Below, piece after piece: positions 27,300 through 58,459 of a DNA stretch of 64,000 bases. The stretch comes from an uncultured Acidobacteriota bacterium (GTDB lineage Bacteria; Actinomycetota; Acidimicrobiia; Spongiisociales; ZC4RG35): the NCBI GenBank assembly GCA_963749415.1, contig CAVVMG010000001.1, positions 300,367 to 364,366 of the forward strand, read 5' to 3'. Under the pieces are notes generated by a model that saw only the letters and a program-made list of their open reading frames with translations, was not told the origin of the DNA and did no database searches. How positions within the stretch are numbered: the first letter of the stretch is position 1; each line of letters starts with the position of its first letter. Both the position numbers and the translations under genes were made by a program.

Positions 27300-27487
27300 C
27301 CTCCATCTCAAGCTACTCGGAGGCCGTCGAGAGCCGTCCGGTAGCTTCGGCGTTGTGAGCAGCCGGAGGATCACTTGACGGTTCCGCATCAGATGGCCCG
27401 ACCGATTCCGGAGGACGGACGACGAGGCGATCGGCCATCCTGACCGCCCGCCTCGGGATCGTCCAGGGTCTCCTCCTCATCACATCG

Positions 27488-42618: not shown

Positions 42619-42694
42619 GCCCTCGTAGCTCAGGGGATAGAGCACAGGTTTCCTAAACCTGGTGTCGGAGGTTCGAGTCCTCCCGGGGGCGCCA
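42619..42694 (+). tRNA. tRNA-Arg (CCT)
   Basis: GCCCTCGTAGCTCAGGGGATAGAGCACAGGTTTCCTAAACCTGGTGTCGGAGGTTCGAGTCCTCCCGGGGGCGCCA folds as a cloverleaf with the anticodon loop TTCCTAA. CCA is encoded. Confidence 0.85.
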
Positions 42695-42709
42695 GTCCAC
42701 GACTTCAGA

Positions 42710-43636
42710 TCAAGGCCCTTCCCTGGATACCTGGCCCGCATTGGCCACGGCCTGGGGTCGACCACGTACGACCACGAACATGGCCATAACTATGACGATC
42801 GCGCCGAACCACTGACGGCTGCTGAGGCGCTCCCCGAGAAGGACATAGCTTGCGGAGATTCCGAATACAGGGATCAAATTGATATAGAGACCGGCGATGG
42901 CTGCGGGCATCTGGCGTAGTCCGGTCAGGTAAAGCCAGAAGGCGGCGGCGTAGTAGAGCGCACCGGACACGAAAGCGCTGATCCACGCAGTCATCGAGAT
43001 GGCGGCGATCTCGGGCCCTTGACCGGTAATTGCCATGACTACGAGTAGGGCGAGGGCGAACAGGAGAGCGCTGGCTTGTTGTAGGGCCACGACTTGGAGG
43101 GTGGACTCGGCGGCCAACCACTTCCTCGAAACCACCGTGTAGACGGCGCAGGCGGCAACGCCGAGCAAGGTGAGAGCTACCCCGAGTGGTTGACCCTGAC
43201 CTCCTGGCTCAAACACGACGAGAAGAACGCCGACGAATGCGAGACAGGCCGCAAGGACGACGGGTTTGGTGATCCGATCGCCGAGGATCAGCCAGGCGAG
43301 GAGGATGATCATGATCGGCTCCGTTGCCCAGAGGAGAACCGAGAGGCTGGCCGTGATGAGTGTGAGCCCGACCAGGCCAAGCGCGTAGGAGATGCCTGGG
43401 TTGAGGATTCCGAGGAGGCCGAGACGTCGGAGTCCGGCTGGCCAGGTCAGATGTTTGCGGTCGACGACAAGGACTGTTGAAAGCAGGGCGACACTTACAG
43501 CGAGTTGGATCGGGAGAAGGGTGAGGGGTGGAATTTCGGAGAGGGCGCGCTTGGCGATGACTGTGGCGATGCCCCATGCGGCGGCGGCGCCGATCAACGC
43601 CAGAACGTACGGACGACGCGAGGTCGTGGTTGGCAC
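42710..43636 (-). CDS. EamA/DMT-superfamily transporter
   Basis: Ten TM segments with two EamA repeats (..LALIGAAAAWGIATVIAKRAL..). Confidence 0.7.
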   Translation of the reverse strand: MPTTTSRRPYVLALIGAAAAWGIATVIAKRALSEIPPLTLLPIQLAVSVALLSTVLVVDRKHLTWPAGLRRLGLLGILNPGISYALGLVGLTLITASLSVLLWATEPIMIILLAWLILGDRITKPVVLAACLAFVGVLLVVFEPGGQGQPLGVALTLLGVAACAVYTVVSRKWLAAESTLQVVALQQASALLFALALLVVMAITGQGPEIAAISMTAWISAFVSGALYYAAAFWLYLTGLRQMPAAIAGLYINLIPVFGISASYVLLGERLSSRQWFGAIVIVMAMFVVVRGRPQAVANAGQVSREGP

Positions 43637-43791
43637 GGGTCTGACTCCTTGAACGATGGCTGAAGTCGGGACGTCTAAGAACGTCGACTCAGTGGTTCTT
43701 CACCATCGCAAATCGAGTACCCGGGTAGTGGTCGACTACCTCGAGGTCGACCAACGCGCATCGGTGTAGAGAGTGGGTGCATTGGTTTGGT

Positions 43792-44589
43792 CTACGAGAC
43801 CGGCTTGCGCGCCTTGATTATCACCGAGTCCATCCCATCGGTCGCCTCATGCGTCGCAGTGAGGCTCACGGCTTCGAATCCGGCCCCTTCAAGCAGTCCG
43901 TGGTACTCGCTGTAGGAGAGCGCACCGGCGATGCATCCAACCCAATTGCCACGTTCGGCGCGTTGTTCTGGCGTTAGGGCGTCATCGGCGACGATGTCAG
44001 AGATTCCGATGCTCCCTCCCGGGCGGAGAACGCGGTGCATCTCGCGGATGACGGCCGCCTTGTCGGTGGAGAGGTTGATCACACAGTTGGATATGACGAC
44101 ATCTATCGAGTCGGCCTCTAGGGGGATGTCCTCGATGAACCCTTTGAGGAACTCGACGTTGGTGGCTCCCGATTGGTTGGCATTGTTGCGTGCGAGTTCG
44201 AGCATGTCGTCGGTCATGTCGAGTCCGTAGACGAATCCGGTGGGTCCGACGCGTCGAGCTGAGAGCAGGACGTCGATGCCGCCACCCGAGCCCAGGTCGA
44301 GGACCCGGTCACCTTCTGATAGGTCGGCGACTGCCGTGGGGTTGCCGCATCCCAGGCTGGCGTCGGACGCCTCGGCGGGTATGACCGAGAGTTCTTCTGG
44401 GGTGTAGGCGCCGTCGGTGAGGACTTTCTCTAGGGTCTCGTCGTGGCCGCAACATTCCGGTCCACAGCAGGAGCCGGACGTCGCAGCCTTCGCGTAACGC
44501 TCCCGCACTTCCTCTCTGAGCTCGAGGTTGTCGACCACGGTCCACGTCCTTTCATATCGATACTGATCGATGTGTGATCGTATCTTCAT
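43792..44589 (-). CDS. arsM: Arsenite S-adenosylmethionine methyltransferase ArsM
   Basis: A SAM-MT motif VLDLGSGGGIDV, plus the conserved cysteines (..SGSCCGPECCG.., ..SNCVINLS..) characteristic of ArsM. Start at MKIRSH (44589). Confidence 0.8.
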   Translation of the reverse strand: MKIRSHIDQYRYERTWTVVDNLELREEVRERYAKAATSGSCCGPECCGHDETLEKVLTDGAYTPEELSVIPAEASDASLGCGNPTAVADLSEGDRVLDLGSGGGIDVLLSARRVGPTGFVYGLDMTDDMLELARNNANQSGATNVEFLKGFIEDIPLEADSIDVVISNCVINLSTDKAAVIREMHRVLRPGGSIGISDIVADDALTPEQRAERGNWVGCIAGALSYSEYHGLLEGAGFEAVSLTATHEATDGMDSVIIKARKPVS

Positions 44590-44613
44590 ATCGATGGTTG
44601 TCAATGTGTTAGC

Positions 44614-44964
44614 GTGCCGCTGGTGGATGTGAACCCCACTTGCTGTGTCCCGGTGACCGATGAGACGCTTTCGGTCTCTGAGGCTCAGGCACTGGCCGCC
44701 GACTTCAAGGCTCTTGCTGACCCAGTTCGGCTTCGTCTTCTCAGTCTGATCGCCAGTGTTCCCGAGGGGGAGGTTTGTGCCTGTGACCTCACTGATCCGC
44801 TGGGTCGGAGTCAGGCCACCATCAGCCACCACCTGTCGGTGCTGGTGAACGCCGGTTTGATAACCCGCGAACAGCGAGGCAAATGGGCGTGGTTCCAGGT
44901 GGCGCCAGATCGAGCTGGTTTCGTCCGCACCGTGCTGGTCGGCAAGACCCTCTCGATGTCCTAA
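44614..44964 (+). CDS. arsR: ArsR/SmtB-family metalloregulator
   Basis: A wHTH ..ALADPVRLRLLSLIAS..GEVCACDL.. containing an ELCVCDL-type metal site. Divergent from arsM. Confidence 0.8.
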   Translation: MPLVDVNPTCCVPVTDETLSVSEAQALAADFKALADPVRLRLLSLIASVPEGEVCACDLTDPLGRSQATISHHLSVLVNAGLITREQRGKWAWFQVAPDRAGFVRTVLVGKTLSMS

Positions 44965-45599
44965 GAGGCCTCAGGAAGCAGTTCGGCGAGAAGCGCTCGT
45001 ACCCGCCTTTCGAGTTCGTCTCGGATCGGTCTCACTTCCTCGACTGTCTTCCCGGAGGGGTCGTCCAGATCCCAGTCGATGTACCGCTTGCCGGGGTAGA
45101 GCGGGCAGGCGTCGCCACAACCCATGGTGACGATCACGTCGGCGGCCCGGACGATTTCGTCGGCCCAGGGCTGGGGTATCTCGCCGCTGATGTTCACGCC
45201 GACTTCCGACATCGCCGCAACTGCGGCCTGGTTGACCTGTTCGGCTGGCTCGCTTCCTCCGGAGAACACGTCGACTCGGTCACCGCCGAGCTTCTTGGCC
45301 CAGCCCGCCGCCATCTGTGACCGCCCCGCGTTGTGGACGCATAGAAAGAGGATGCTCGGATTGAGCGTTGTGGAATCTGATTCCAGTCTCACAAGGGCGC
45401 GGAGCCGGTCTCGGGCGAAACGCTCGGCGAGCAGGGGAATCCAGCCGCTGGTGGTTGCACGCTCTACGAGCATGTCGAGGGAGTCGTTCATGAACCGTTC
45501 GATGGTCTCGGTGTTGAGGGTCCCCGAGAACTGGCGTTGCAGCCGTTCGGCGGCTTGTCGGATCTGAAGTTGCTCAGCGGTCGTGAGGGCGACGGGCAT
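44961..45599 (-). CDS. arsC: Arsenate reductase ArsC (low-molecular-weight phosphatase family)
   Basis: P-loop ILFLCVHNAGRSQMAAGW (CX5R). Start at MPVAL (45599). Its N-terminus overlaps the upstream aquaglyceroporin stop (45574) by 26 nt. Confidence 0.8.
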   Translation of the reverse strand: MPVALTTAEQLQIRQAAERLQRQFSGTLNTETIERFMNDSLDMLVERATTSGWIPLLAERFARDRLRALVRLESDSTTLNPSILFLCVHNAGRSQMAAGWAKKLGGDRVDVFSGGSEPAEQVNQAAVAAMSEVGVNISGEIPQPWADEIVRAADVIVTMGCGDACPLYPGKRYIDWDLDDPSGKTVEEVRPIRDELERRVRALLAELLPEAS

Positions 45600-46263
45600 C
45601 AGGTTCCTTCTGGCGGTCAGCCAATAACAGATGGGTTGACAGGACGACGGCGAGCAGGGCTCCAATTAGTTGAGCGATGATGAAACCTGGAGCATTCGAG
45701 GGAGCGATCCCGGTGAAGCTGTCGGTGAACATTCGAGCCAGAGTCAGTGCCGGGTTGAGGAAGCCGGCTGACACGGTGGAGAACACGGCCGCTGCCACCC
45801 AGGCGCCAACCACGGGAGCTACCGCAGGCGAGCGATCCTGGTCGACTAAGCCGAGGATCAGCAGCACGAGCACGAGTGTGGCGATGCCTTCGGCGAGGAT
45901 TGGACCCCATCCTCTGCGGTCGGTGGCCGACATTGCCAGTGGCTCACCGAAGCTGACCAGACCTATCGCAACACCGGCTACTGCGCCAAGGATCTGAGCG
46001 ATCCAGTATTGAGCGGCCGTGCCTGCGGTCATTCCCCGTCGAGTCCAGAACGCCAACGTCACCGCTGGATTGAAATGAGCCCCCGACGTCGAGCCCAGGA
46101 CCGAGATCAGCGCCGCGAGAGCCAAACCCACCGCCACTGCGTGAAAGAACAATCTGCTGGCGCCGTCAGCTCCCAGTTCCTCGACGGTGATCCCGCTACC
46201 GACGACGACAAAGGCGAGGAGGCATGTTCCAGCGAATTCTGCAACGACTGGCCTGGCGTTCAT
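45574..46263 (-). CDS. Aquaglyceroporin (MIP family, AqpS/GlpF-like, putative arsenite channel)
   Basis: Two NPA boxes (HFNPAVT, FLNPALT) and six TM segments. Confidence 0.85.
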   Translation of the reverse strand: MNARPVVAEFAGTCLLAFVVVGSGITVEELGADGASRLFFHAVAVGLALAALISVLGSTSGAHFNPAVTLAFWTRRGMTAGTAAQYWIAQILGAVAGVAIGLVSFGEPLAMSATDRRGWGPILAEGIATLVLVLLILGLVDQDRSPAVAPVVGAWVAAAVFSTVSAGFLNPALTLARMFTDSFTGIAPSNAPGFIIAQLIGALLAVVLSTHLLLADRQKEPDARRPHDR

Positions 46264-46909
46264 GCGATCAGTTGGTCCACCCGCCGTTCGACTTCGGAGA
46301 ATGCCGATCGAAAGGCAGCGACTCTTCCGGAGGAGACCGGATCGGGTATCGACCAGTGCAAATGGCGGCCTGCCTCCGGGAGAGCCCCTTCTCGCGCCCG
46401 GTCGCAGACCGAGATCAGAACATCGGGTACGGCACGGATCGACTCGTAGCCCCTTGGAACCGCATCACTGAGATCGATGCCCCGCTCCGCGGCAACTCGA
46501 ATCGCATGCGGATGAACCGTTGCACTGGGGTCGCGTCCTGCGCTAGAAGCGTGCTCGCCGGTTGTGGCAAACCAGTACGCCGCTGCGTATTGAGACGCGC
46601 CGAATTGTGACTGCACACGAACAAGACTGTTCCGGAGATCCCGCCAGCCGATGGCATTAACCCGACAAGCGCGCTCTGCCGCAGGGAGACATACCGACGA
46701 CGACGGTCACCCTCGGACGCCTTGCGCTCGACGACGGCTGCCGCCTCCAGCACATTGAGGTGGTGCGCGAGCAGATTTCCGGGCATCCCCAGATCGGTCC
46801 CCAGTTCTTGCACAGTGAGGTCACCGCCAAGAAGTAGGTCGACGATCCGTAACCGACTCTCGTCACCTAAACCCGAATGGACCCTGGCACGCTCCGTCAG
46901 TCGGCTCAT
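46260..46909 (-). pseudogene. ArsR-ArsC fusion (ArsR wHTH plus LMW-PTP arsenate reductase), frameshifted near 46615
   Basis: The ArsR part (..LTVQELGTDLGMPGNLLAHHLNVLEAAAVV..) runs without a stop into the ArsC P-loop GTVLFVCSHNSAR. The rest of ArsC (..SQFGASQ..VHPHAIRVAAERGIDLS..VLISVCDRARE..WSIPDP..) is in the +1 frame. It overlaps the aquaglyceroporin gene by 4 nt. Confidence 0.6.
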
Positions 46910-46965
46910 TCACACGAAGATAATGACTCAACAATAGTTGAGCAAATATCTCGACACTGAACCCT

Positions 46966-48222
46966 TCACCGACGAACGGTCGAGCCAAGAGGCATCGCAA
47001 AGCTCCCCAACACCGCCACGAGCATTCCTACCGAGGCGAAGATGAATGCAGCCGCTGGACCAACCAGCGTCCAGAGGATTCCGGCGACTCCTGAGGCGAC
47101 CAGGTTGCCGAAGCTCTGGGTTGCAGCCAGCAGTCCAAACGCCGAGCCACGACGCTCAACCGGCGCGGCCTCCGCAACCGCACCATTCTCCGCTGTCTCC
47201 ACGAGACCGATGGCGAAACCGGCAAGTACGAAGGCGATGGCGAGGATGACCGTCACGGGACCGGTCGCAGCGAACAGCAGATACGCCCCGAGGCCGAACA
47301 CGAACCCGATGGTGAGGATTGGTCGATATCCCAACCGGTCAGCCGCCTTGCCTCCCGGTATGGCGACCGCCGCGGCGGCCAAGTTGTGACCGGCGTAGAG
47401 GAGCAGGGCGGTCCTGGTCGCCGAGTCGAGGCCCACGGTCGGGGTGAGCAGATCGGTGGCCCGAAGGATGAGCAGCGTCGTGGCGAGGTTCCCCAACTCA
47501 AAGGCTCCGATGGGAACCCAGAGCCGACCCAGCCTCCCCCTGAGGAGAGGTCGGATTTCGATGCGAAGCGGCCGCCGCTCCCGGCCCGCTGGCCGTTCGA
47601 TATGTCGAATTGCATAGACGATGGAACCTGCCGCAGCGAGACCGAACACCCCCGAGGCGAGAATCGCCCCCCGTACTCCAACCAAGGCGACCAGGCCGAG
47701 TGCGAGGAGGGGACCTCCAACCGCCCCTAGGTTGTCCATCATTCGCTCAAACCCATAGGCACGGCCGTATGTCCTTGGACTCGACACGTCTGCGAGCAGA
47801 GCGTTGCGAGCCGGAACTCGAATCCCTCGACCCAGCCACGCTCCGGTGCGAAGCAGTGCTACCTGCCAGACCGCGGTAGCCAGCCCGATCATTGAGGAGA
47901 AGACTGCGGTGGCGGTGTATCCACCCACGGCCACCGTCCGGCGACGCATCGGATCGTCAGCGAGTACCCCGCCACCGAAGCGCGCCAGTCCTGCCGCTCC
48001 ATCGGCTACGCCCTCTATCAATCCCAAGGCGGCCGCGGGTGCACCCAGCGTGGAGGTCAGGAAGGCCGGGAGCAATGAGGTCGGTACCTCATGGCCGAGA
48101 TCGGCCAAGAGATCCCGACCGATCCCGCCACCGGTCTCTCGCCCACGGCCGTCATCGAGAGGCAAGCTATTCAATGCGTACGAACGAGTCTTACCGGCAC
48201 GCCGACCAGCGTGTGCCGTCAT
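46966..48222 (-). CDS. MFS transporter (12 TM segments)
   Basis: MFS_1 motifs (..GVLADDPMRRRTVAVGG.., ..GKAADRLGYRP..). The substrate is unknown. It sits at the edge of the arsenic gene cluster. Confidence 0.7.
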   Translation of the reverse strand: MTAHAGRRAGKTRSYALNSLPLDDGRGRETGGGIGRDLLADLGHEVPTSLLPAFLTSTLGAPAAALGLIEGVADGAAGLARFGGGVLADDPMRRRTVAVGGYTATAVFSSMIGLATAVWQVALLRTGAWLGRGIRVPARNALLADVSSPRTYGRAYGFERMMDNLGAVGGPLLALGLVALVGVRGAILASGVFGLAAAGSIVYAIRHIERPAGRERRPLRIEIRPLLRGRLGRLWVPIGAFELGNLATTLLILRATDLLTPTVGLDSATRTALLLYAGHNLAAAAVAIPGGKAADRLGYRPILTIGFVFGLGAYLLFAATGPVTVILAIAFVLAGFAIGLVETAENGAVAEAAPVERRGSAFGLLAATQSFGNLVASGVAGILWTLVGPAAAFIFASVGMLVAVLGSFAMPLGSTVRR

Positions 48223-48346
48223 CGCTCGCTGGCGTGACGCCGGGTATTAGTGCGTGAAATTGAGAACCGGTTCGCGCTAAACCTAGAGAGCGCGAAAACC
48301 CTATATTCATTGGTGTCTTCCAGTGTCGGGAGGCTCGAATACACGG

Positions 48347-48394
48347 CAGGTTTCCTAAACCTGGTGTCGGAGGTTCGAGTCCTCCCGGGGGCGC
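48347..48394 (+). repeat. Direct repeat identical to the 3' 48 nt of tRNA-Arg(CCT) (anticodon stem through acceptor 3' strand): att-like island boundary
   Basis: CAGGTTTCCTAAACCTGGTGTCGGAGGTTCGAGTCCTCCCGGGGGCGC is 48/48 identical to 42645-42692. There is no matching 5' tRNA half upstream, so this is a tRNA fragment rather than a gene. Confidence 0.7.
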
Positions 48395-48434
48395 TCACCT
48401 CAACGACAGGTGTCGGGAGATTTCTCCGAACGTG

Positions 48435-49770
48435 TCACGGGCCCACGTCAAATATCTCCCAGGTACCGGGCACCCCTTTCAGGTCATGTCGTCCCCGCGG
48501 TGTCAGGGCGAAGCGCGATCCAATCACCATGTCGCGGACGGTCTGGGAAACAACGACCTCACCAGGGTTCGCAAGCGCCGCCACGCGGGCTCCGATGTGC
48601 ACCGCCATTCCGCTGACATCTTCGGCCTCGAAGACAACCTCGCCAATATGGAGACCGACGCGGATCTCCAGACCGGCGCTCCGGCTCGCCAGGGACATCG
48701 CCAATGCGCACTCGATGGCGGGTGTCGGGCTGTCGAAGACGATGAGGAAACCGTCCCCGGCGGTGTTCATCTCCTTGCCCCCGTATCGAGTCAGCAGCCG
48801 GCGGGCCTCGGCGCGATGACTCTTCAGCAGAGCGCTCCACACCCGATCGCCGACTCCGGCGGCGCGCTCGGTCGACCCGACCACGTCGCTGAAGAGGACG
48901 GTGGCTACCCGCCGGTCGACCGCACCGCCCACCCTCGTGCCAACGAGGAACTCCTCGATCTCGTCCATGAGACCGTCCACGTCGCCGAGGTAGCCCGGCG
49001 TCTCGTCGCCCGGCACTTCGACGTACTGGCCGTTCTGCAGATGCTCCGCCAGCCAGCGCATGCCCTCGGCCGGGATGAAGGGAAGCATCCTTCCTGTGTA
49101 TTAGGAGGGCGGGTGCCGTCACCGATGACAGCAGCGGGCGCAAGTCGATTTCCATCATTCGTCGCATCAGACTGGCCGCCATGCTGGGAGTGGCCGACAT
49201 CCGCTCCAGCTTGCGAAACCAGCTGACGATCCGCTCGTCTTCCGTCACCGAAGGGGCGATGAGTGGAAGGAGGATGGCTTGGCCCCACATCCCCTGTTCG
49301 ATCACTCCGGCCACAGTCTCGAACGCCTCGGGGTCGGGGCCCCAGGGATGGTCCTCATCGGGGGTCGAGGTGGCCAGCACCTCGCCCAACACAAGGGCGG
49401 ACACCCGCTGTGGGTGCAGGGCCGCCACGGTCATCGCGATCGCCGCGGCATCGGTCCAGCCCACGAGAGCAGCTCTATCCATGCCCACGGCGTCCATGAC
49501 CGACAAGACGTCGGGCACCATCTCGTCGGTGCTGGCCTCGATCGAGGGCCGGTCGGAGAGACCGGTGCCCCTCTTGTCGAACAGTGCGACCCGCCCCATC
49601 GCTGCGTAGCGTTCCAGAAATCGCCGGCATTCGGGCAGCTCCCACAGGACCTCGAGGTGGGAAACCCATCCGATCATCAACAGGATGTCGAGCGGCCCTC
49701 CTCCAAAGACTTGATAGGCGAGATCGACCCTCCCTGAGCGGGTGAACTTGACCTCGGGAACGGGCAACAC
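48435..49770 (-). pseudogene. LipJ-like fusion of alpha/beta-hydrolase and class III adenylate/guanylate cyclase domains, frameshifted near 49085
   Basis: The N-terminal hydrolase (..LAYQVFGGGPLDILLMIGWVSHLE..) and the C-terminal cyclase homology domain (..ATVLFSDVVGSTERAA...MNTAGDGFLIVF..) are in different frames. The architecture resembles mycobacterial LipJ. Confidence 0.6.
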
Positions 49771-49966
49771 GGGTGGTCGATTCTATAGGCCTGGCACGAA
49801 GCCCCCAGATAGAGTCGACTGCGTTCGCCGTCACCGCCGTGTACCGGGTCATACCTTCTACCTGCCAGCTCTGGAGGTGTTCTTCGGGGCCCGTTGCCTG
49901 GAGCGGAACGAGTACATCTAGACGGGAGATCGAGAAAGTGTCTCATTCGCACAGCATGATCTGCAC

Positions 49967-51256
49967 ATGACCGCCCTGGCAATCCTCGCCGCGGTGTTCA
50001 TCTGCTACTCCCTCGTCGCGGCTCGTCTCGACAAGTGGTCGATCACTGCTCCTATGGTCTTCGTCCTCATCGGAGCCGTTCTCGGGCTGGCCGCTCCCGA
50101 CTGGCTCGGACCGCTGGGCGACCCCGAAACGGTCAAGCACATTGCCGAGCTGACCCTGGCACTGCTGCTCTTCGCGGACGCCTCCACGCTCCGATGGCGT
50201 GAATTGCGCGAGGACGGTGGTCTCCCCATCCGCCTGCTCCTGATCGGGTTCCCGCTCACTGTGCTCGCCGGCTTCGGAGCAGGAATGTGGCTGTTTCCGG
50301 CCGCCGGATGGGCCGCGGCAGCCCTCGCCGCCAGCATCCTCGCCCCCACAGACGCCGCACTCGGACTGGGCGTTTTCACCAACCGGTCGGTGCCCGGGCG
50401 CATCCGCCGCGCCCTCAATGTCGAGAGTGGGCTGAACGACGGGATGGCCACGCCTTTGGTGACCCTCTTTCTCGCCGTTCTCGTCGCTCAGGAGGGAACC
50501 GGCCCCGAAGACTGGGTGACCGAGTCCCTGCGGGAACTCGGGATTGGCTTCCTAGTGGCCCTTGTCGTGGGTTGGGTCTCGGGACGACTCATCCACGCCG
50601 CCCATGATCGCGGTTGGACATCCCCGCTCTCTGAGCGCCTAGCCGTCCTGGCTACGGCGCTGCTCTCCTACGGCGGAGCGGTGGCGGCCGGTGGGAACGG
50701 CTTCGTCGCCGCCTTCGTCGCCGGCATTGTTTTTGCGGTCGCCTCGAGAGGAAAGCTCCACGAGCCAGTCGAATTCACCGAGGACCTCGGTCTGTTCGCC
50801 TCGTTTCTGGTCTGGGCCATATTCGGGGCCCTGCTCCTCGCCCCACAACTGAGCGGCGAGATATCAGCCACCGCGATTATCTACGCGGTGTTGAGCCTCA
50901 CCCTGGTGCGGATCGTGCCCGTCGCCCTCGCAATGATCGGAACGGGCTTAAGACCGGCCAGCCTCTTTTTCATGGGGTGGTTCGGTCCCCGCGGATTGGC
51001 TTCCGTCGTGTTCACATTGATCGCGTTCGAATCACTCCACGAGGGCGGGATCGCCCCAGACACTCTGATCGATATCGCCACATGGACGGTCTTCCTCTCG
51101 GTCATCGCCCACGGGGTCACTGCCTCGCCACTGGCCATCAGGTACGGGAAAAGTGTCGCCGACGAGCCCATCGAGCAACTCGAGGCCGGAGCGCATCTCG
51201 GCGACCCCGTTCCCAGAGCGCTCAGCGAGACTTTGTCGCCGACGACGATTCGTTGA
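49967..51256 (+). CDS. CPA1-family Na+/H+ antiporter (NhaP-type)
   Basis: 429 aa and 11-12 TM segments. ..ESGLNDGMATPL.. matches the Na_H_Exchanger motif. Confidence 0.8.
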   Translation: MTALAILAAVFICYSLVAARLDKWSITAPMVFVLIGAVLGLAAPDWLGPLGDPETVKHIAELTLALLLFADASTLRWRELREDGGLPIRLLLIGFPLTVLAGFGAGMWLFPAAGWAAAALAASILAPTDAALGLGVFTNRSVPGRIRRALNVESGLNDGMATPLVTLFLAVLVAQEGTGPEDWVTESLRELGIGFLVALVVGWVSGRLIHAAHDRGWTSPLSERLAVLATALLSYGGAVAAGGNGFVAAFVAGIVFAVASRGKLHEPVEFTEDLGLFASFLVWAIFGALLLAPQLSGEISATAIIYAVLSLTLVRIVPVALAMIGTGLRPASLFFMGWFGPRGLASVVFTLIAFESLHEGGIAPDTLIDIATWTVFLSVIAHGVTASPLAIRYGKSVADEPIEQLEAGAHLGDPVPRALSETLSPTTIR

Positions 51257-51335
51257 TTCGGGTAGGGTCGAAAGGCCAGCCATGGCCGCCAAATCACCCC
51301 GATCCAGGCGATACGCGGGGTGCTGATCCATCCGT

Positions 51336-53753
51336 TTGGATGGAGGCTCGCTGTCACGGCATGTCCCTGAGGAGATGAGAATGCCCAACCAACCCGACCG
51401 TCATCTACGCGGCTCGTTGCCGATCCCCGATCGACCGGCCCACGGCCTGACCACATACGACGCGAAGGACCCGGACACCAGTTACGCGTCGATTCAACCG
51501 CTGCTCCCACCCGAGGGGGCGCCGAATGTTCTGGTGATCCTCCTCGATGACGTCGGTTTCGGCTCGTCCAGCGCATTTGGGGGCCCGATCAACACCCCTA
51601 CCGCAGAGCGGCTCGCCGCAGGCGGCGCCCGATACACCCGCTTTCACACCACGGCCCTGTGCGCCCCTACCCGGCAAGCGCTGCTGACCGGACGGAACCA
51701 TCATTCCGTGGGGATGGGAGCGATCACCGAGCTCGCCACCTCCGCCCCGGGCAACAATTCGCTGCGCCCAAACACCAAAGCCCCGGTGGCAACCAGCCTC
51801 AAGTTGAACGGCTACTCGACAGCGCAGTTCGGCAAGTGCCACGAGGTGCCTGTCTGGCAGAGCTCACCAATGGGCCCCTTCGACGCCTGGCCATCGGGAG
51901 GTGGAGGCTTCGAGTACTTCTATGGATTCATCGGCGGTGAAAACAACCAGTACGACCCCGCGCTCTACGAGGGGACCACGCCCATCGAGCCGCCCAAGAC
52001 CGCCGAGGAGGGGTATCACCTCACCGAAGACCTCACGAACAAGGCCATCGGCTGGGTCCGTCAGCAGAAGGCCCTCATGCCGGACAAGCCGTTCTTCGTC
52101 TACTTCGCGCCGGGGGCCACGCACGCTCCGCACCACGTCCGACCGGAGTGGTCGGACAAGTACGCCGGCAAGTTCTCCGACGGCTGGGATCGCCTGCGCG
52201 AGACCATCTTCGAACAGCAGAAGGAGCTAGGTGTCATCTCGGCCGATGCTGTGTTGACCCCCCGCCATGCGGAGATAGCCGGATGGGACGAGATGGATGA
52301 GGAGCTGAAGCCCGTCCTCGAGAGGCAGATGGAGGTCTATGCGGGTTTCCTCGAGCACACCGATGTCGAGGTGGGACGGCTCATCGACGCGATCGAGGAA
52401 CTGGGAATCCTCGAGGACACCCTGATCTATTACATCATCGGCGACAACGGTGCCTCTGCCGAGGGGACCATCAATGGCGCCTTCAACGAGATGGCGAACT
52501 TCAACGGGATGGCCGCCGTGGAGACCAAGGAGTTCCTGCTTTCGAAGATGGACGAGCTGGGGACTGAGACCTCCTACAACCACTATTCGATCGGGTGGGC
52601 ATGGGCACTGAACACGCCCTACCAGTGGACCAAGCAAGTGGCGTCGCACTGGGGTGGCACCCGCAACGGGACCATCGTGCATTGGCCCAAGGTCATCACC
52701 GACGGCGGCAGCATGCGTCACCAGTTCAGTCATGTGATAGACGTGGCGCCCACGATCCTGGAAGCCGCCGGGATCCCCGAACCGGCGTTCGTCAACGGTG
52801 TCATGCAGTCACCAATGGAAGGAACCAGCATGCTCTACAGCTTCGCCGAAGGCGAGGCTCCGGAGCAGCACGACCTGCAGTACTTCGAGATGTTCGGCAA
52901 CCGGGGCATTTATCACAAAGGCTGGAGCGCGGTGACCAAGCACAAGACTCCCTGGGTGCTGGTCGGTGGAAATCTGCCCGCTTTCGACGACGATGTTTGG
53001 GAGTTGTACGACGGGAGCAGTGACTGGTCTCAGGCGAAGGACCTCTCCGCGGAGATGCCTGACAAGCTCCACGAGTTACAGCGTCGCTGGCTGATCGAGG
53101 CCACTAAGTACAACGCCATCCCGCTGGATGATCGCTCCGGTGACCGTCTCAACTCTGACGTGGCAGGACGCCCGACATTGATTCGCGGTAACTCCCAGTT
53201 GCTGTTCGAAAACATGGGGCGGCTCTCCGAGTCGAGCGTGCTCAACATCAAGAACAAATCCTTCTCGATCACAGCCGAAGTCACGATCCCCGACGAGGGG
53301 GCCGAAGGCGTGATCATCGCCCAGGGGGGTCGTTTCGGAGGTTGGAGTGTCTATACCCGTGAGGGGGTTCTCAAGTTCACCTACAACGTCCTCGGGTTGC
53401 AGGTATTCACCGTGTCAGCCACCGAGCCTGTGCCGACCGGAAAGCACCAGGTGCGCATGGAGTTCGCCTACGACGGGGGTGGGCTGGCCAAAGGTGGCAC
53501 GGCGACGGTGTACCACGATGGGAAAGCCGTCGGGGAAGGCCGGGTCGACCTCACACAACCGATGGTCTTCTCTGCAGACGAGACCACCGACATCGGAAGA
53601 GAGACGGGGACGACCGTGTCCTCGGATTACACCCCCGCCTCGAGTCGCTTCAACGGGCGGATCGAGTGGGTGCAGATCGACATCGGCGCCGATGACAACG
53701 ACCACTACATAGACGACGAGGAGCGCCTCCGTATCGCAATGGCACGTCAGTGA
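51336..53753 (+). CDS. Arylsulfatase (Cys-type, S1 family) with large C-terminal domain
   Basis: ..PNVLVILLDDVGFG...TTALCAPTRQALLTGRNHHSVG is the C-x-P-x-R formylglycine site plus the metal-binding Asp residues. 805 aa. Confidence 0.85.
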   Translation: MDGGSLSRHVPEEMRMPNQPDRHLRGSLPIPDRPAHGLTTYDAKDPDTSYASIQPLLPPEGAPNVLVILLDDVGFGSSSAFGGPINTPTAERLAAGGARYTRFHTTALCAPTRQALLTGRNHHSVGMGAITELATSAPGNNSLRPNTKAPVATSLKLNGYSTAQFGKCHEVPVWQSSPMGPFDAWPSGGGGFEYFYGFIGGENNQYDPALYEGTTPIEPPKTAEEGYHLTEDLTNKAIGWVRQQKALMPDKPFFVYFAPGATHAPHHVRPEWSDKYAGKFSDGWDRLRETIFEQQKELGVISADAVLTPRHAEIAGWDEMDEELKPVLERQMEVYAGFLEHTDVEVGRLIDAIEELGILEDTLIYYIIGDNGASAEGTINGAFNEMANFNGMAAVETKEFLLSKMDELGTETSYNHYSIGWAWALNTPYQWTKQVASHWGGTRNGTIVHWPKVITDGGSMRHQFSHVIDVAPTILEAAGIPEPAFVNGVMQSPMEGTSMLYSFAEGEAPEQHDLQYFEMFGNRGIYHKGWSAVTKHKTPWVLVGGNLPAFDDDVWELYDGSSDWSQAKDLSAEMPDKLHELQRRWLIEATKYNAIPLDDRSGDRLNSDVAGRPTLIRGNSQLLFENMGRLSESSVLNIKNKSFSITAEVTIPDEGAEGVIIAQGGRFGGWSVYTREGVLKFTYNVLGLQVFTVSATEPVPTGKHQVRMEFAYDGGGLAKGGTATVYHDGKAVGEGRVDLTQPMVFSADETTDIGRETGTTVSSDYTPASSRFNGRIEWVQIDIGADDNDHYIDDEERLRIAMARQ

Positions 53754-53870
53754 GCTCCGCGTGGCGGGGAAGGCAGCGTCGACCGGTAGACGACCGGCGA
53801 CTGGTCCGCGACCGCCAGCTTCGGCCGATTCCGTGACACTGCGGGATCCAACTGCTTAGGCGAGGCATGC

Positions 53871-54575
53871 ATGACAACAGCCGGTCGTGATAGCGAGACG
53901 AACAACGGCGGACGCTCGCCGAGACGGTCGGCGCGTCTCACTGCCTGGCTCGGGATCGCCCAGGCAGTCCTGCTCTTGGCCTCGACCTGGCTTCTCTCGT
54001 TGATCCCGGGGCCAACGACGTCAGATGAGGAGTTCCTCGAGTTCTACGCGTCGGACAGCCGCCGAGTCGTGGTCCTCCTCGGCATCTACCTGATGCCTTT
54101 CGCAGCGATCGCCTTCCTGTGGTTCGCGGTAGCCCTACGGGTCTGGGTAGCTCAGACCTCGACACGACCACAGGATGCGCTGTTGTCGAACGTGCAATTG
54201 GTGAGTGCGATCCTTTTCGTCGCCCTTTTTCTGTCGAGCGCGGCCGCTTCTACGGTGGTCGCGGTGACCGTCGAACTCGCCGAGACGACGGTCGATCCGA
54301 CTACCGCTCGCCAATTCCCTCAATTTGGCACGGCGCTTCTCCTCGTCTTCGCGATGCGTATGGCGGCCATGTTCATCTTCACCACATCCGGCCTGGCCAG
54401 AGTCCATGCCGGCCTGCCTCGCTGGTTCACCTGGAGTGGATATCTGGTCGGGTTGTTCCTGCTGCTGAGTGCCTCCTTGAACCCGACCCTGGTCCTGGTG
54501 TTCCCTGTCTGGGTCCTTGCTCTCAGCGTGATTCTGTTGCTGAAATCGCAACGGCTCCCGAAAGTTCAGGTGTGA
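53871..54575 (+). CDS. Uncharacterised polytopic membrane protein (paralogue of 27488..28108)
   Basis: Roughly 75% identity with the 27488 protein. It shares near-identical nucleotide stretches (for example GTCGAACGTGCAATTGGTGAGTGCGATCCT at 27688 and 54187). Confidence 0.6.
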   Translation: MTTAGRDSETNNGGRSPRRSARLTAWLGIAQAVLLLASTWLLSLIPGPTTSDEEFLEFYASDSRRVVVLLGIYLMPFAAIAFLWFAVALRVWVAQTSTRPQDALLSNVQLVSAILFVALFLSSAAASTVVAVTVELAETTVDPTTARQFPQFGTALLLVFAMRMAAMFIFTTSGLARVHAGLPRWFTWSGYLVGLFLLLSASLNPTLVLVFPVWVLALSVILLLKSQRLPKVQV

Positions 54576-54582
54576 CCAGCTA

Positions 54583-55269
54583 ATGGCCAACCCTGAACAG
54601 GTCGAACAGCGAGACGAGGAGCTGAAGAGCACCGGATACGAGATCTTCATCGGGTTCCTCTCCATACTGTCCATCCTCAACGTCGCACTGATCTACCTTG
54701 CCGACGATCCGAACTTGGACACGGTCATCTATGCGTTGAATGGACTGTTCAGCGTCATCTTCCTGGCTGACTTCACCTACCGGTTGTTCACTGCGGATTC
54801 GAAGTCCCGCTACTTCCTGCGAGAGTTCGGGTGGGCGGATCTCTTCGCCAGCCTGCCGTTCCCACAGGCGAAGGTGCTACGCATCTTCCGCCTGATACGA
54901 GTCAGTCGCCTCCTCCGCGGCTATGGCATCAAAGGCATAGTCCGCAGCCTGGTCAAGGATCGGGCCGGGAGCGCGCTCTTCACGTTGTTGCTGATGGGGA
55001 TCCTCGTGCTCGAATTCGGCAGCCTCTGGATTCTCCATTTAGAGCAATACGCCTCTGACGCAAACATCACATCGGCATCCGATGCCCTTTGGTATGTCAT
55101 CGTCACCATCTCCACAGTCGGCTACGGCGACCAGTTCCCGGTGACTAACAACGGACGCATTGTTGGAAGCTTGATCATTGTCATCGGAGTCGGGATCTTT
55201 GGCACCTTTACCGGCTACCTGGCGAATCTGTTCCTCACACCGGCGAAGGAACGCACGGGTCAAACCTGA
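54583..55269 (+). CDS. Ion-transport protein: minimal voltage-sensor-like K+ channel (S4-like RIFRLIRVSRLLR plus pore TVGYGD)
   Basis: Selectivity filter TVGYGD with pore helix and inner helix, preceded by an arginine-repeat S4-like helix. Confidence 0.75.
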   Translation: MANPEQVEQRDEELKSTGYEIFIGFLSILSILNVALIYLADDPNLDTVIYALNGLFSVIFLADFTYRLFTADSKSRYFLREFGWADLFASLPFPQAKVLRIFRLIRVSRLLRGYGIKGIVRSLVKDRAGSALFTLLLMGILVLEFGSLWILHLEQYASDANITSASDALWYVIVTISTVGYGDQFPVTNNGRIVGSLIIVIGVGIFGTFTGYLANLFLTPAKERTGQT

Positions 55270-55380
55270 AGAAGGATCCCGGTCCAAGTCCTTTGGCGCT
55301 CTCGCACCGGATTTGAGTCTGGCCGGTCCCCGCAGCTGGGGATCACACCCTGTATTGCTCAAACGGAATTCGGACACCGC

Positions 55381-55428
55381 AGGTTTCCTAGACCTGGTGT
55401 CGGAGGTTCGAGTCCTCCGGGGGGCGCC
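55381..55428 (+). repeat. Third direct copy of the tRNA-Arg(CCT) 3' half (46/48 identical): second att-like island boundary
   Basis: AGGTTTCCTAGACCTGGTGTCGGAGGTTCGAGTCCTCCGGGGGGCGCC has two mismatches against 42646-42693 and no 5' tRNA half. Confidence 0.65.
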
Positions 55429-55525
55429 CACCCGCACCACCTATGTGCCAGCCCGATCGGGGTAGGTTCCGGGACTCGGAATCGTGCCGTGAAATCCGCG
55501 TCACACGTCGACAAGGAGGAATCCC

Positions 55526-56044
55526 ATGATTGGACCAATCCAGGCTTTCGTGATCGGCTTTCCCGACAATGACATGTTTGAGGGTCGGATCGCCGAGGAG
55601 CTGGCCCGTCTCAGTGACGTGGGCCAGATCCGGGTCATTGATGCAGTAGTCGTGACCCGCGAGGGCGACGACGTTGCGGTCCTCTCGGTGTCGGAGCTCG
55701 ATGACGAGGAGCGCGCCGAGCTGCGGACCGCGGTAGGCGCCCTGATCGGGCTCGGGGCAGCGGGCATGGATGGCGCCGAGGCAGGCGGGGCGGCTGGTGC
55801 CTCTATCGACGTCGAGGCTATGACCGCTGCGGAGATAATTGCTGCCGGCCTGATCGAGGACCTTCCTGATGGCAGCTCCGCACTCGTCCTCGCCATCGAG
55901 CATCTATGGGCCGTGCCGTTGCGCGATGCAGTCCGCGACGCCGGCGGGCTCGTGATCTCCCACCGCTCGATCACTCCCGAGGACCTGGTGGCCCTGGGAA
56001 TGGCAATTGGCTACGAGGCAGAGCTCGAGGCCGAAGAGGTTTAG
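55526..56044 (+). CDS. Hypothetical Gly/Ala-rich protein with an internally repeated half (DUF1269-like?)
   Basis: MIGPIQAFVIGFPDND...IRVIDAVVVTREGDDVAVLS... and ...GLVISHRSITPEDLVALGMAIG appear to be two related halves. Family assignment is uncertain. Confidence 0.4.
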   Translation: MIGPIQAFVIGFPDNDMFEGRIAEELARLSDVGQIRVIDAVVVTREGDDVAVLSVSELDDEERAELRTAVGALIGLGAAGMDGAEAGGAAGASIDVEAMTAAEIIAAGLIEDLPDGSSALVLAIEHLWAVPLRDAVRDAGGLVISHRSITPEDLVALGMAIGYEAELEAEEV

Positions 56045-56116: not shown

Positions 56117-58459
56117 TCACTCCCGCTTCATCATGGCGAGGGCTTCCATCTCCAGGTCGACGTACTGATCACCGGATACGTCCACAACCACCTCTTTGAT
56201 GGTTCCTCCAATGAACGGGTAGGGATGTGCGCCTTCGTAGTCGGAGGTAACCGGTTCCCCGCCGTCCTTGCCCACATTGAGCCCCTCACCGACCAGTGAG
56301 AAGTTCCCGGGCTGGGTCATGATCTCGCCTTCGCCCACCTTCTCGTCATTGATGAACAGCGACACAGTGCCGGTAGTGGGCATGGCGTCGCCTTCCTTAT
56401 CGAAGGAGACGCCCAGGATCACGTCGCCGGTGGGGATCGCCTTGGTCGACTCGACCATCTGCTCCTTGGAGCCGACGAAGTTGTAGACGTACTTGAGCTT
56501 GCCGTCCTTGATGTACAACGAGTGGCCGCCGAAGCGAGCCCCATGGCTGAACAGCACACCCGAAGCCTCTTTCGTGTCGATCTTGGCCTCGACCATGATC
56601 GAGTAGCTCCGGTTGCGGACGTTGACCGCCGCCGTCTCCGGCACCTCGGCCGTGCCCGGGTAATAGATGTACTTGTCCCTGGGCGGCGCCACCTGGGGCC
56701 GGGTCGGGTCGGCGAGGACCTCGACGGCGGTCTTGTCCAGCAGCGGAAGGCCGTTGTAGAGGCCGGCGGCATGGAACCAGAGATTGATCATCTCCTGGAC
56801 CTTGGCCGGGTTCTCCGCAGCCAGGTCGTTCATCTCTGTGCGATCGTTCTCAGTGTCGTAGAGCTCCCACCGGTCCTCATCGAAGTGACCCCATCCCGCG
56901 ATGGTCGGGTGGACCGACACCGCCTTCCAACCCTTGTGCCAGATCGCCCTCGACCCGAGCATGGAGAAGAACCCGGTCTCCTTGGGGGTCGGCACATCAG
57001 CGCTCTCGAAGGTGGGTCGGATGCTCACTCCTTCCAACGGGATCTGATTGAAGCCCTTGACCTCCTCGGGCAATTCGACTCCGAGGCAGTCGTACATCGT
57101 GGCCACGATGTCGGTGGCGTGACAGAACTGGCTACGAACCTCACCCTTGGCCTCGATCCCCTTGGGCCAGGAGATCACCATCGCGTCGGCAACACCACCT
57201 TCGAAGTTGTACCGCTTCCACATCTTGAACGGGGTGTTGAACGCCCATGCCCAACCCACCGGGTAGTGGTTGTAGGTGGCGGTGGATCCGAGAACATCGA
57301 GGTACTGGAGGTTCTCCTCCATGGTGTCGGGGATCCCGTTGAAGAACTTGTTCTCGTTCACCGACCCGTTGGGGCCGCCCTCGCCGCTGGCGCCGTTGTC
57401 CGAGACCAGCACCACGATCGTGTTCTCCAACTGGCCGGAGTCCTCGAGATAGTCGAGAAGCCTTCCGATCTCATGGTCGGCGTGGCTGAGGAAGCCGGCA
57501 TACACCTCGGCCATCCGGCAGAACAGCGCCTTCTCGTCGTCGGAGAGTGAGTCCCAGGGGCGGACGACATCGAGGGGCGGCCAGGGCTTGTCGTCGACGC
57601 TGGTCTCCTCGGCGTAGGGATTGAGCGGGGAGAGCACCGCGTCCTGGGGCATGATCCCCATCTTCTTCTGATTCTCGAACACGATCTCCCGGTACGCCTC
57701 GTAGCCCATATCGAACTTGCCCTTGTACTTCTCGATCCACTCCTTGGGGGCGTGGTGAGGAGCGTGGGTGGCGCCCGGACAGAAATACATGAAGAACGGC
57801 TTGTCCGGCGCGATGGTCTTTGCGTCCTTGATGAACTCGATCGCCTTGTCGGTCAGGTCGACGGTGAGGTGATAGCCGTCCTCGGGAAGCGATGGTTGGT
57901 CCACCGGGTGGTTGTCGTAGATCAGGTCCGGGTACCACTGGTTGGTCTCGCCTCCGAGGAACCCGTAGTAGCGCTCGAAGCCGCGACCCACGGGCCAGTT
58001 TCTCTTGGTCGACGCCATGTTCATCTCGTCGGCCGCCACCAGATGCCACTTGCCGAGCATGTAGGTGTTCCACCCCTGGTCCCCCAACACCTCGGCGATC
58101 GTGGCGCACTCGAAGGGGATGTGGCCATTTGCGTTGGGAAACCCGGTGGTCGCCTCGGCGATGCATGCCATCCCATTGGTGGTGTGGTTGCGACCGGTGA
58201 GCAGTGACGATCTCGTCGGCGAGCACAGGGCAGTGGTGTGCCAGTTGGTGTAGGTCAGCCCGTTCTCCGCCAGTCGGTTGATGTTGGGGGTCTCGATCAG
58301 CCCACCCCAGGGCTCCATCGCGGAGAACCCAACATCGTCGAGGACGATGTAGAGGACACTCGGGGCCCCTTCGGGGGCAACCGGCTGGAGGTAGGGCTCC
58401 CAATCCGGGACCGAGTCCCGGTCGTCGATGTTGATCACGCCTTGGAATGTCTTGCTCAC
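56117..58459 (-). CDS. Arylsulfatase (Cys-type, S1 family) with large C-terminal domain; paralogue of 51336..53753
   Basis: ..PSVLYIVLDDVGFSAME...TTALCSPTRSSLLTGRNH.. is the C-x-P-x-R site. 780 aa. It is colinear with the other sulfatase over its full length. Confidence 0.85.
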   Translation of the reverse strand: MSKTFQGVINIDDRDSVPDWEPYLQPVAPEGAPSVLYIVLDDVGFSAMEPWGGLIETPNINRLAENGLTYTNWHTTALCSPTRSSLLTGRNHTTNGMACIAEATTGFPNANGHIPFECATIAEVLGDQGWNTYMLGKWHLVAADEMNMASTKRNWPVGRGFERYYGFLGGETNQWYPDLIYDNHPVDQPSLPEDGYHLTVDLTDKAIEFIKDAKTIAPDKPFFMYFCPGATHAPHHAPKEWIEKYKGKFDMGYEAYREIVFENQKKMGIMPQDAVLSPLNPYAEETSVDDKPWPPLDVVRPWDSLSDDEKALFCRMAEVYAGFLSHADHEIGRLLDYLEDSGQLENTIVVLVSDNGASGEGGPNGSVNENKFFNGIPDTMEENLQYLDVLGSTATYNHYPVGWAWAFNTPFKMWKRYNFEGGVADAMVISWPKGIEAKGEVRSQFCHATDIVATMYDCLGVELPEEVKGFNQIPLEGVSIRPTFESADVPTPKETGFFSMLGSRAIWHKGWKAVSVHPTIAGWGHFDEDRWELYDTENDRTEMNDLAAENPAKVQEMINLWFHAAGLYNGLPLLDKTAVEVLADPTRPQVAPPRDKYIYYPGTAEVPETAAVNVRNRSYSIMVEAKIDTKEASGVLFSHGARFGGHSLYIKDGKLKYVYNFVGSKEQMVESTKAIPTGDVILGVSFDKEGDAMPTTGTVSLFINDEKVGEGEIMTQPGNFSLVGEGLNVGKDGGEPVTSDYEGAHPYPFIGGTIKEVVVDVSGDQYVDLEMEALAMMKRE

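Follow-up and report, generated by a model that had tools for sequence, protein, structure and literature searches.

Actinomycete integrative and conjugative elements (AICEs), such as pSAM2 and SLP1, possess int, xis, rep, and FtsK-like tra genes, integrate in the 3' part of tRNA genes, and show an identity of several tens of nucleotides between their attachment (att) sites. In islands of the type collected by Islander, the tRNA gene is split on integration and made whole again by the attP site of the element, and the far end of the island is recognizable by the end fragment that was displaced (PMC4383910). About half of all Islander islands belong to the anticodon-centered "A" class, in which the fragment starts at the anticodon stem, and tandem arrays are common (PMC4383910). 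The Islander/TIGER definition demands an integrase in each island of an array (Hudson, Lau, and Williams, 2015; PMC4383910). Elements that have lost their integration and transfer genes and keep attL and attR are referred to as cis-mobilizable elements (CIMEs), and the stacking of new elements beside them is referred to as accretion; examples are the ICESt1/ICESt3-related elements of Streptococcus thermophilus and the pathogenicity islands of Streptomyces (PMC5704250). Here, we describe a tRNA-Arg(CCT) locus in a 64-kb stretch of DNA from an uncultured actinobacterial lineage, probably of the Acidimicrobiia (contig CAVVMG010000001.1, positions 300,367 to 364,366; referred to as the window). 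Two copies of the 3' part of the intact tRNA gene lie downstream of it, with arsenic-resistance and ion-transport genes in the intervals. We consider it likely (probability, roughly 0.7) that the copies are decayed att scars of tyrosine-integrase insertion into this tRNA gene, forming a CIME-like tandem array that was later remodeled.

The intact tRNA-Arg(CCT) gene was called by ARAGORN at 42619 to 42694 on the plus strand and would represent the regenerated integration target, on the attL side. Positions 27 to 74 of the tRNA (42645 to 42692) make up a repeated core of 48 nt, which starts at the first base of the anticodon stem and extends, by way of the variable loop, the T arm, the 3' strand of the acceptor stem, and the discriminator, as far as the first C of the CCA, which is encoded in the gene. 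The first downstream copy found by a pattern search (direct repeat 2 [DR2], a putative attR-type scar; 48347 to 48394, plus strand) is identical to the tRNA at 48 of 48 positions (0 mismatches), and it is also present at 48/48 in the related contig L038. The second copy (DR3; 55380 to 55428, plus strand) matches at 46 of 48 positions over 55380 to 55427 (2 mismatches) and at 47 of 49 if 55428 is included; it was observed in the window only. In both copies, identity to the tRNA begins sharply at position 27 and runs to the tRNA 3' end (position 74 or 75). Both are in direct orientation and intergenic (gaps 48223 to 48434 and 55270 to 55525), with no overlap with a conserved protein-coding domain. 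No further copy of the core was found on either strand of the window, where dinucleotide-preserving shuffles led us to expect 0 matches. The original prediction for this DNA had placed the intact tRNA and a perfect 48-nt copy at exactly these coordinates, and ARAGORN and the pattern search agree with it; a third copy, given as 55381 to 55428 at 46/48, was recovered with the same score, and its start was corrected to 55380.

Neither copy belongs to a tRNA gene. ARAGORN made no call at DR2 or DR3, and the 40 nt upstream of each were no closer to the tRNA 5' half than shuffled sequences (P = 0.95 and 0.15, respectively), in agreement with the predicted absence of a 5' tRNA half at both sites. The explanation that the copies are parts of full-length tRNA-Arg genes, which had been named as one that would overturn the prediction, is not supported by these results. 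We also rejected DR2, DR3, and the fragments in other genomes as pseudo-tRNAs with decayed 5' halves, given that local alignment was not significant against shuffles. A tRNA gene followed on the same strand by downstream fragments of its 3' end, delimiting segments of 5.65 kb and 6.99 kb (within 2 to 200 kb), corresponds to the arrangement sought by Islander-type criteria.

The segments were then examined for genes of integration and transfer. The Pfam scan covered selected candidate open reading frames (ORFs; ≥80 aa) at 42.6 to 55.6 kb. No match to recombinase, excisionase, relaxase, replication, or phage families was obtained among the scanned ORFs, all of which matched only transporter, arsenic-resistance, hydrolase/cyclase, sulfatase, or channel families, or none. 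Regarding the genes by which integrative and conjugative elements (ICEs), AICEs, and prophages are recognized, the scanned ORFs likewise included no conjugation, replication, or phage structural genes. Coding sequences fill most of the region, the largest gap between assigned genes being about 210 nt (48223 to 48434). Six-frame translations of the main intergenic gaps (X-masked), searched against Pfam for integrase pseudogene remnants as the prediction had proposed, gave no Pfam match at all at an E value of ≤1, while the positive control, an integrase relic from the contig L002 described below, was recovered as PF00589 (E = 1.7e-6). The entire 64-kb window was also negative with a local hidden Markov model (HMM) derived from 33 small integrases and in a motif screen based on boxes I and II of the tyrosine recombinases, and no recombinase was present among the ORFs scanned within 7 kb upstream of the tRNA. 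The predicted lack of recombinase, excisionase, and transfer genes was thus upheld by the Pfam scan, the controlled six-frame scan, the HMM, and the motif screen. An attP-bearing or excised form was not detected either (0 matches for the core in IMG/VR and 0 for the element-side arm plus core in the JGI metagenomes), and a pattern consisting of the tRNA and its upstream flank also gave 0 matches in the JGI metagenomes.

A core scan of species-representative genomes yielded 30 loci, and comparison of these loci revealed that the interval after tRNA-Arg is a hot spot, which is nearly empty in one genome and is occupied by fragment-bounded inserts in five others, including one that encodes an integrase. 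Four loci (L012, L014, L015, and L016) share 88 to 92% identity among themselves and about 78% identity with the window, and all have near the tRNA an RRM gene and/or a homolog of X172, the gene that lies to the right of the array in the window. The site in L016 is effectively empty, with 75 nt only between the tRNA and the block of flank-gene homology; the distance between tRNA and flank is 1 kb in L015 and 7.4 kb in L012, where a fragment (positions 27 to 66) lies about 0.5 kb before the flank gene. In L014, a 0.9-kb insert (one small membrane protein) and a 49-nt fragment are followed by the sequence that directly follows the tRNA in L012. L014 and L012 are a clean occupied/empty pair; it is the only precise pair seen, and it does not involve the window's own segments. 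Empty tRNA-Arg sites, which the prediction had suggested looking for in relatives, are therefore represented by L016 (nearly empty) and by L012 as the counterpart of the L014 insert.

Downstream fragments were also found in L008, L012, L019, and L030. Those of L012 and L014 start at position 27, and those of L008 and L030 start at positions 29 and 32. The sole integrase-bearing island at this tRNA, in L030 (Thermoleophilia), is 3.4 kb long; its fragment starts in the anticodon loop, and a PF00589 ORF (E = 1.6e-8; 35 bits, above the Pfam cutoff) ends about 40 nt before the fragment. This island also encodes a small helix-turn-helix protein, and its cargo is unrelated to that of the window segments. 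No integrase was found in the other fragment-bounded inserts examined (in L012, by the motif screen and the small-integrase HMM, with one ORF searched against Pfam). Directly 5' of the core, ATACACGG is found both at DR2 and at the L014 fragment (arm similarity, P = 0.02). In L019, the 3' part of tRNA-Arg and its flank are tandemly duplicated only 74 nt downstream (7287 to 7513), with an inverted 16-nt piece of the D arm after each copy.

An integrase relic was found closer to the window. The same-species contig L002 matches the window at 99% identity as far as the tRNA, diverges 4 nt past the tRNA 3' end (shared GCCAGTC), and carries wholly different genes for at least 9.4 kb beyond it. About 55 nt past its tRNA, L002 contains a relic of about 45 aa with a recognizable box I (GLRLGEVLALRPKDI) and a PF00589 match above the cutoff (28.4 bits). 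The relic is a member of a large PF00589 family made up of very short recombinases without an N-terminal domain (longest matches, about 176 to 178 aa), which occur in varied mobile contexts (e.g., beside IS66 genes). None of the three members located on long contigs (L033, 5969 to 6487; L034, 8001 to 8438; L035, 8001 to 8471) was beside tRNA-Arg, and the family was dropped as a candidate integrase of this att site, as no connection was established.

The first segment (segment 1; 42695 to 48346; 5.65 kb) contains an arsenic-resistance cluster and transporters, is absent from the related contig L001, and is present in L038. It begins with an EamA-family transporter gene (42710 to 43636, minus strand; PF00892, E = 7.6e-39), the stop codon of which is 15 nt from the tRNA 3' end. 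Next come genes for an ArsM-like S-adenosylmethionine-dependent methyltransferase (maximal ORF at 43792 to 44832, minus strand; Methyltransf_31, E = 8.8e-34; plasmid matches annotated arsM), an ArsR-family regulator (44614 to 44964, plus strand; HTH_5, E = 1.6e-13), an arsenate reductase (ArsC) of the LMWP type with a phosphatase-like N-terminal domain (44961 to 45665, minus strand; LMWPc and Phosphatase-like_N; plasmid matches annotated ArsC), a MIP-family (aquaglyceroporin-type) channel (45574 to 46263, minus strand; PF00230, E = 1.1e-32), a second LMWP-type phosphatase or ArsC-like ORF (46260 to 46616, minus strand; PF01451, E = 2e-8), and a second regulator of the ArsR/MarR type (46415 to 46909, minus strand; HTH_5, E = 5.9e-7). 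The methyltransferase gene probably starts downstream of the maximal-ORF start (the L038 gene call is 248 aa). An MFS transporter gene (46966 to 48222, minus strand; PF07690) is the last gene before DR2. Pfam agrees with the arsenic genes and EamA transporter that had been assigned to this segment, to which the MIP channel and the MFS transporter can be added.

The second segment (segment 2; 48395 to 55379) begins with a LipJ-like gene encoding an alpha/beta-hydrolase fused to a class III nucleotidyl cyclase (48435 to 49770, minus strand; Abhydrolase_1 and Guanylate_cyc). A single additional T at 49084 breaks this gene into two frames and is either the mark of a frameshift pseudogene or a homopolymer sequencing error; in the alignment, the L038 version is intact (444 aa). 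A conserved core block of 5.4 kb is opened by a Na+/H+ exchanger gene (49967 to 51256, plus strand; PF00999), after which come a sulfatase gene with a C-terminal lectin-like domain (51336 to 53753, plus strand; PF00884, E = 5.6e-62), a gene for a 234-aa membrane protein of unknown family (53871 to 54575, plus strand; no Pfam match above the cutoff), and an Ion_trans/K+ channel gene (54583 to 55269, plus strand; PF00520 and PF07885). Homology to all relatives stops at the stop codon of the K+ channel gene. Beyond DR3 lies X172 (55526 to 56044, plus strand), a 172-aa gene with weak DUF1269 likeness, which is conserved in the distant relatives, where it likewise flanks the hot spot on the right and has the opposite orientation. 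Pfam and blastn bear out the LipJ-like hydrolase-cyclase, Na+/H+ antiporter, sulfatase, duplicated membrane protein, and K+ channel listed for this segment in the prediction. The paralog of the 234-aa membrane protein gene is located at about 27413 to 28065, roughly 26 kb upstream (about 74% identity by blastn). The sulfatase gene also has a paralog, inverted and just beyond the array (56117 to 58459, minus strand), with patches of 77 to 83% nucleotide identity.

In terms of composition, segment 1 is foreign and looks recently acquired. Its G+C content is 0.622, compared with 0.649 ± 0.007 for background chunks of matching size taken from elsewhere in the window; none of these chunks reaches its tetranucleotide distance; and the G+C content at third codon positions (GC3) of its genes is 0.61 to 0.76, against about 0.78 to 0.87 for most neighboring genes. 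Segment 2 is slightly GC poor, with a borderline tetranucleotide distance (5% of the background chunks are as far) and GC3 values of 0.75 to 0.81, and on these grounds it does not look recently acquired. The composition check proposed for both segments thus singled out segment 1 and left segment 2 near native. No island-level relative of segment 1 was found in the plasmid collection, which provided gene-level matches to arsM and arsC only (69 to 76% identity).

The surroundings of the copies were inspected for structural signals. The element side of DR2 has a stable hairpin (48271 to 48296; 8-bp stem TTCGCGCT/AGCGCGAA, 10-nt loop; fold z = -3.9), and the region 48300 to 48400 around DR2 folds unusually well (z = -5.1). 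A second hairpin (TCCCC-GCAGCT-GGGGA) is located at 55327 to 55342 and is no more stable than shuffled sequences (z = +0.2). Of the two hairpins predicted near the repeats, the first is therefore significantly stable, and the second is at chance level and about 19 nt away from its predicted place. The hairpin at 48271 to 48296 has no T tract of the terminator type, neither hairpin resembles an intrinsic terminator, and scans for terminators and promoters around DR2 and DR3 found none. Weak partial copies of the core flank DR2 on both sides (48322 to 48337 and 48397 to 48416; GTGTCGGGAGGCTCGA, P of about 0.01 to 0.02; CCTCAACGACAGGTGTCGG, P of about 0.05 to 0.09); they may represent remnants of earlier scars or sites of protein binding.

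Close relatives (94 to 99% nucleotide identity) allowed us to compare the array among strains. L001 and L002 are ENA metagenome contigs obtained by an exact-protein look-up with the RRM protein encoded just upstream of the tRNA, and L036, L037, and L038 were reached by a homolog search with the MFS protein. L001, L002, and L038 belong to the ENA assemblies ERZ250394xx to ERZ250395xx, with L002 and L038 originating from one sample. A 410-aa protein encoded upstream of the tRNA led to no relatives among genome contigs; its gene is itself variable. The region 39754 to 41670 upstream of the RRM gene, which includes this 410-aa ORF (no Pfam family), differs between the window and L001, and the variable zone therefore reaches both sides of the tRNA.

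L038 is colinear with the window over 42717 to 55269 (97.2% identity), including DR2 and the intact LipJ gene, and its left end adjoins a Ser/Thr kinase gene, with no tRNA there. In L001, the order is the tRNA/fragment, the MFS gene (83% identity), the block from the Na+/H+ exchanger to the K+ channel (97.9%), and the right flank; the arsenic genes, DR2, and the LipJ gene are missing. The arsenic genes of segment 1 are thus absent from L001, yet the breakpoints are not at the repeats, and by blastn the MFS gene is only 83% identical in L001 compared with 98% for its neighbors. The tRNA of L001 (10725 to 10826) consists of positions 1 to 57 followed by positions 29 to 74, i.e., it has a 28-nt internal tandem duplication, and was not called by ARAGORN; an out-of-register deletion could have fused the tRNA to a fragment downstream of it, or the assembly could be at fault here. 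Across the DR3 spacer, identity of the relatives to the window drops from 97 to 98% on the left to 94.6% (L038) and 96.5% (L001) on the right, which suggests a recombination breakpoint there. L036 and L037 both contain two direct copies of the tmRNA 3' end (L036, 7188 to 7359 and 11259 to 11397; same in L037; Rfam tmRNA, partial, 27.6 bits) flanking BrkB, an 85-aa gene, and the MFS homolog, upstream of the block from the Na+/H+ exchanger to the K+ channel. The MFS gene of L036 and L037 thus seems to form part of the cargo of an ssrA island array.

On the basis of the sharp start of the copies at position 27, the hot spot, the L012/L014 pair, the L030 island, and the L002 relic, we infer that the copies are integration scars and that integrases were lost by decay. 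Under this scenario, elements with an attP bearing tRNA positions 27 to 74 would have recombined with the gene around the anticodon loop, each insertion restoring the tRNA and displacing the old 3' part downstream. Repeated insertion would give a tandem array with the tRNA-proximal arsenic segment as its youngest layer, from which the integration modules would then have been lost, and deletions and homologous exchange between strains would have remodeled the array further. The outcome would be an array without integrases, the present boundaries of which match those of the original elements only in part. The layering is as expected, given that the proximal segment is foreign and ends in a perfect copy (DR2) and that the distal copy (DR3) has two substitutions. 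Signs of decay include the frameshift in the LipJ gene, the integrase relic of L002, the lost tRNA junction of L038, and the imprecise differences between strains. The occurrence of DR3 in the window only, the core block without fragments elsewhere, the divergence and position of the MFS gene, and the absence of the tRNA from the left end of L038 indicate that the array was reworked by several events. This rework involved deletions and at least one rearrangement and probably also homologous exchange between strains.

Several observations weigh against this interpretation. In L001 and L038, which carry the same genes (97 to 98% identity), the 167-nt spacer in which DR3 lies in the window is not simply deleted and has given way to an unrelated spacer of 100 nt; a decayed DR3 within the 100-nt spacer was considered and rejected (similarity not significant, P = 0.2 to 0.34). 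Either DR3 is ancestral and was replaced in the lineage of L001 and L038, or it was imported into the window lineage with the more divergent right flank. The core of segment 2 occurs in L036 and L037 at about 89 to 90% identity in another neighborhood, with no tRNA-Arg or fragment. In L001, the MFS gene lies to the right of a fragment, and there is no fragment between the MFS and Na+/H+ exchanger genes. X172 is convergent with the tRNA in L012 (7506 to 8000), L014 (182 to 676), L015 (4535 to 5211), and L016 (2250 to 2837) and has the opposite orientation in the window, L001, and L038; an inverted att copy that could explain the inversion was not found. The age order rests solely on the two mismatches of DR3 and on composition. 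Finally, neither an autonomous relative of either segment (in IMG/VR, the JGI metagenomes, and the plasmid collection) nor an integrase specific for the tRNA-Arg site in the window's lineage was found.

These observations leave the claims of the prediction standing to different degrees. The footprint of site-specific integration into the tRNA is corroborated by the geometry of the repeats, the hot spot, the L030 integrase, and the L002 relic. The reading of the locus as two adjacent islands, each delimited by the repeats, is not supported in that form: segment 1 is foreign and absent from L001, with breakpoints that are not at the repeats, and L001 and L038 lack DR3 at the distal end. Segment 2 is bounded by DR2 and DR3 in the window, and its core without a tRNA-Arg fragment in L036 and L037 speaks against a clean element. 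Relatives with the same genes and without the repeats, which the prediction had named as grounds for another explanation, thus exist for DR3 (L001 and L038) and, for the core of segment 2, in L036 and L037, which have no tRNA-Arg fragment there; DR2 is kept in L038.

We weighed the decayed-scar interpretation against other explanations. Alternatively, the segments might be nonautonomous cassettes that have stayed mobile, with an integrase from elsewhere in the genome or from an incoming element acting on them in trans (or, after accretion, in cis) and the tRNA-Arg 3' half serving as the shared recombination site. The perfect 48-nt DR2, which is kept in L038, fits such ongoing movement, as do the fragment-bounded inserts without integrases at this tRNA in several genomes (e.g., the 0.9-kb insert of L014 relative to L012) and the occurrence of ATACACGG next to the core, on its 5' side, at both DR2 and the L014 fragment; moreover, cis-mobilization of CIMEs is documented (PMC5704250). 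Nevertheless, the 64-kb window contains no candidate integrase, neither a circular or attP form nor another copy of either segment was found in the collections searched, the differences between strains (L001 and L038) are mostly imprecise rather than a precise gain or loss at the repeats, and DR3 has two substitutions. We regard mobilization in trans as unlikely, though it is the alternative to be taken most seriously. A broader version, in which the tRNA-Arg(CCT) 3' part is a docking site shared across the clade, where integrase-less modules (0.9 to 7 kb) would be inserted, stacked, and exchanged in trans as a cassette-like tRNA gene array, seems to us improbable.

Explanations that involve no mobile elements, or no real repeat, have far less in their favor. 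If the fragments were the remains of a tandem tRNA-Arg gene array (duplication and decay) or the result of gene conversion, duplications such as those of the tRNA 3' part and flank in L019 and within the tRNA of L001 would fit. Decay of whole genes, however, would not give two near-perfect copies that start at position 27 beside unrelated 5' sequence; the fragments of L012 and L014 begin at this same position and those of L008 and L030 within a few nucleotides of it (29 and 32); and 5.7 and 7.0 kb of unrelated cargo lie between the copies, with segment 1 foreign in composition. We consider this explanation very improbable. A similarly slight chance attaches to an assembly or chimerism artifact of the metagenome-derived genome as the source of one or both fragments. 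DR3 would be the more suspect of the two, since it occurs in the window only and sits where identity drops from 97 to 98% on the left to 94.6 to 96.5% on the right, and the odd 28-nt tRNA duplication of L001, itself possibly an assembly error, points in the same direction. Yet DR2 and its flanks are reproduced in the independent assembly L038, DR3 has its own two substitutions and unique arms, which a repeat-induced misjoin would not make, and the gene order across DR3 is the same in L001 and L038.

The locus documents a tRNA-Arg(CCT) hot spot that accumulates arsenic-resistance and ion-transport genes in an uncultured actinobacterial lineage, and it shows how fast integrases and clean boundaries can be lost from such arrays. 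Island finders that require an integrase would miss this array, and finders that trust tRNA fragments as island ends would set boundaries that are not common to close relatives. Should the modules prove to be mobilized in trans, the locus would offer a compact model of how cargo is exchanged independently of an integrase; none of the present findings requires this.

Regarding known systems, the array resembles integron cassette arrays only superficially, in that modules without integrases are separated by a repeated recombination site. It has no IntI-type integrase, attI, or attC structure, its repeat is a tRNA fragment, and its modules contain several genes with their own regulators. The actinobacterial host, the use of the 3' part of a tRNA gene as the integration site, and an att identity segment of tens of nucleotides are shared with AICEs, whereas int, xis, rep, and FtsK-like tra genes were not found among the scanned ORFs. 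As in Islander arrays, an intact tRNA gene is followed by several direct 3' fragments of the "A" crossover class, with cargo in between. Unlike in those arrays, neither segment has a PF00589 integrase, so that both would be filtered out, and the distal fragment is strain specific, with distal cargo that also occurs elsewhere without fragments. The locus differs from the described CIMEs in that it has no identified related autonomous ICE or integrative and mobilizable element, is known from sequence alone, belongs to an uncultured actinobacterial host, and underwent extra remodeling (the tRNA junction is lost in one strain, and the distal repeat is absent from two). It is like CIMEs in having kept att-type repeats (48/48 and 46/48, a likeness at the sequence level only), in the absence of integration and transfer genes, and in its tandem organization at the 3' end of the target gene; as in CIME accretion, the youngest layer is expected beside the functional target. 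The phenomenon is well known, and this locus is a further example of it, a decayed genomic-island hot spot in a poorly studied actinobacterial lineage.

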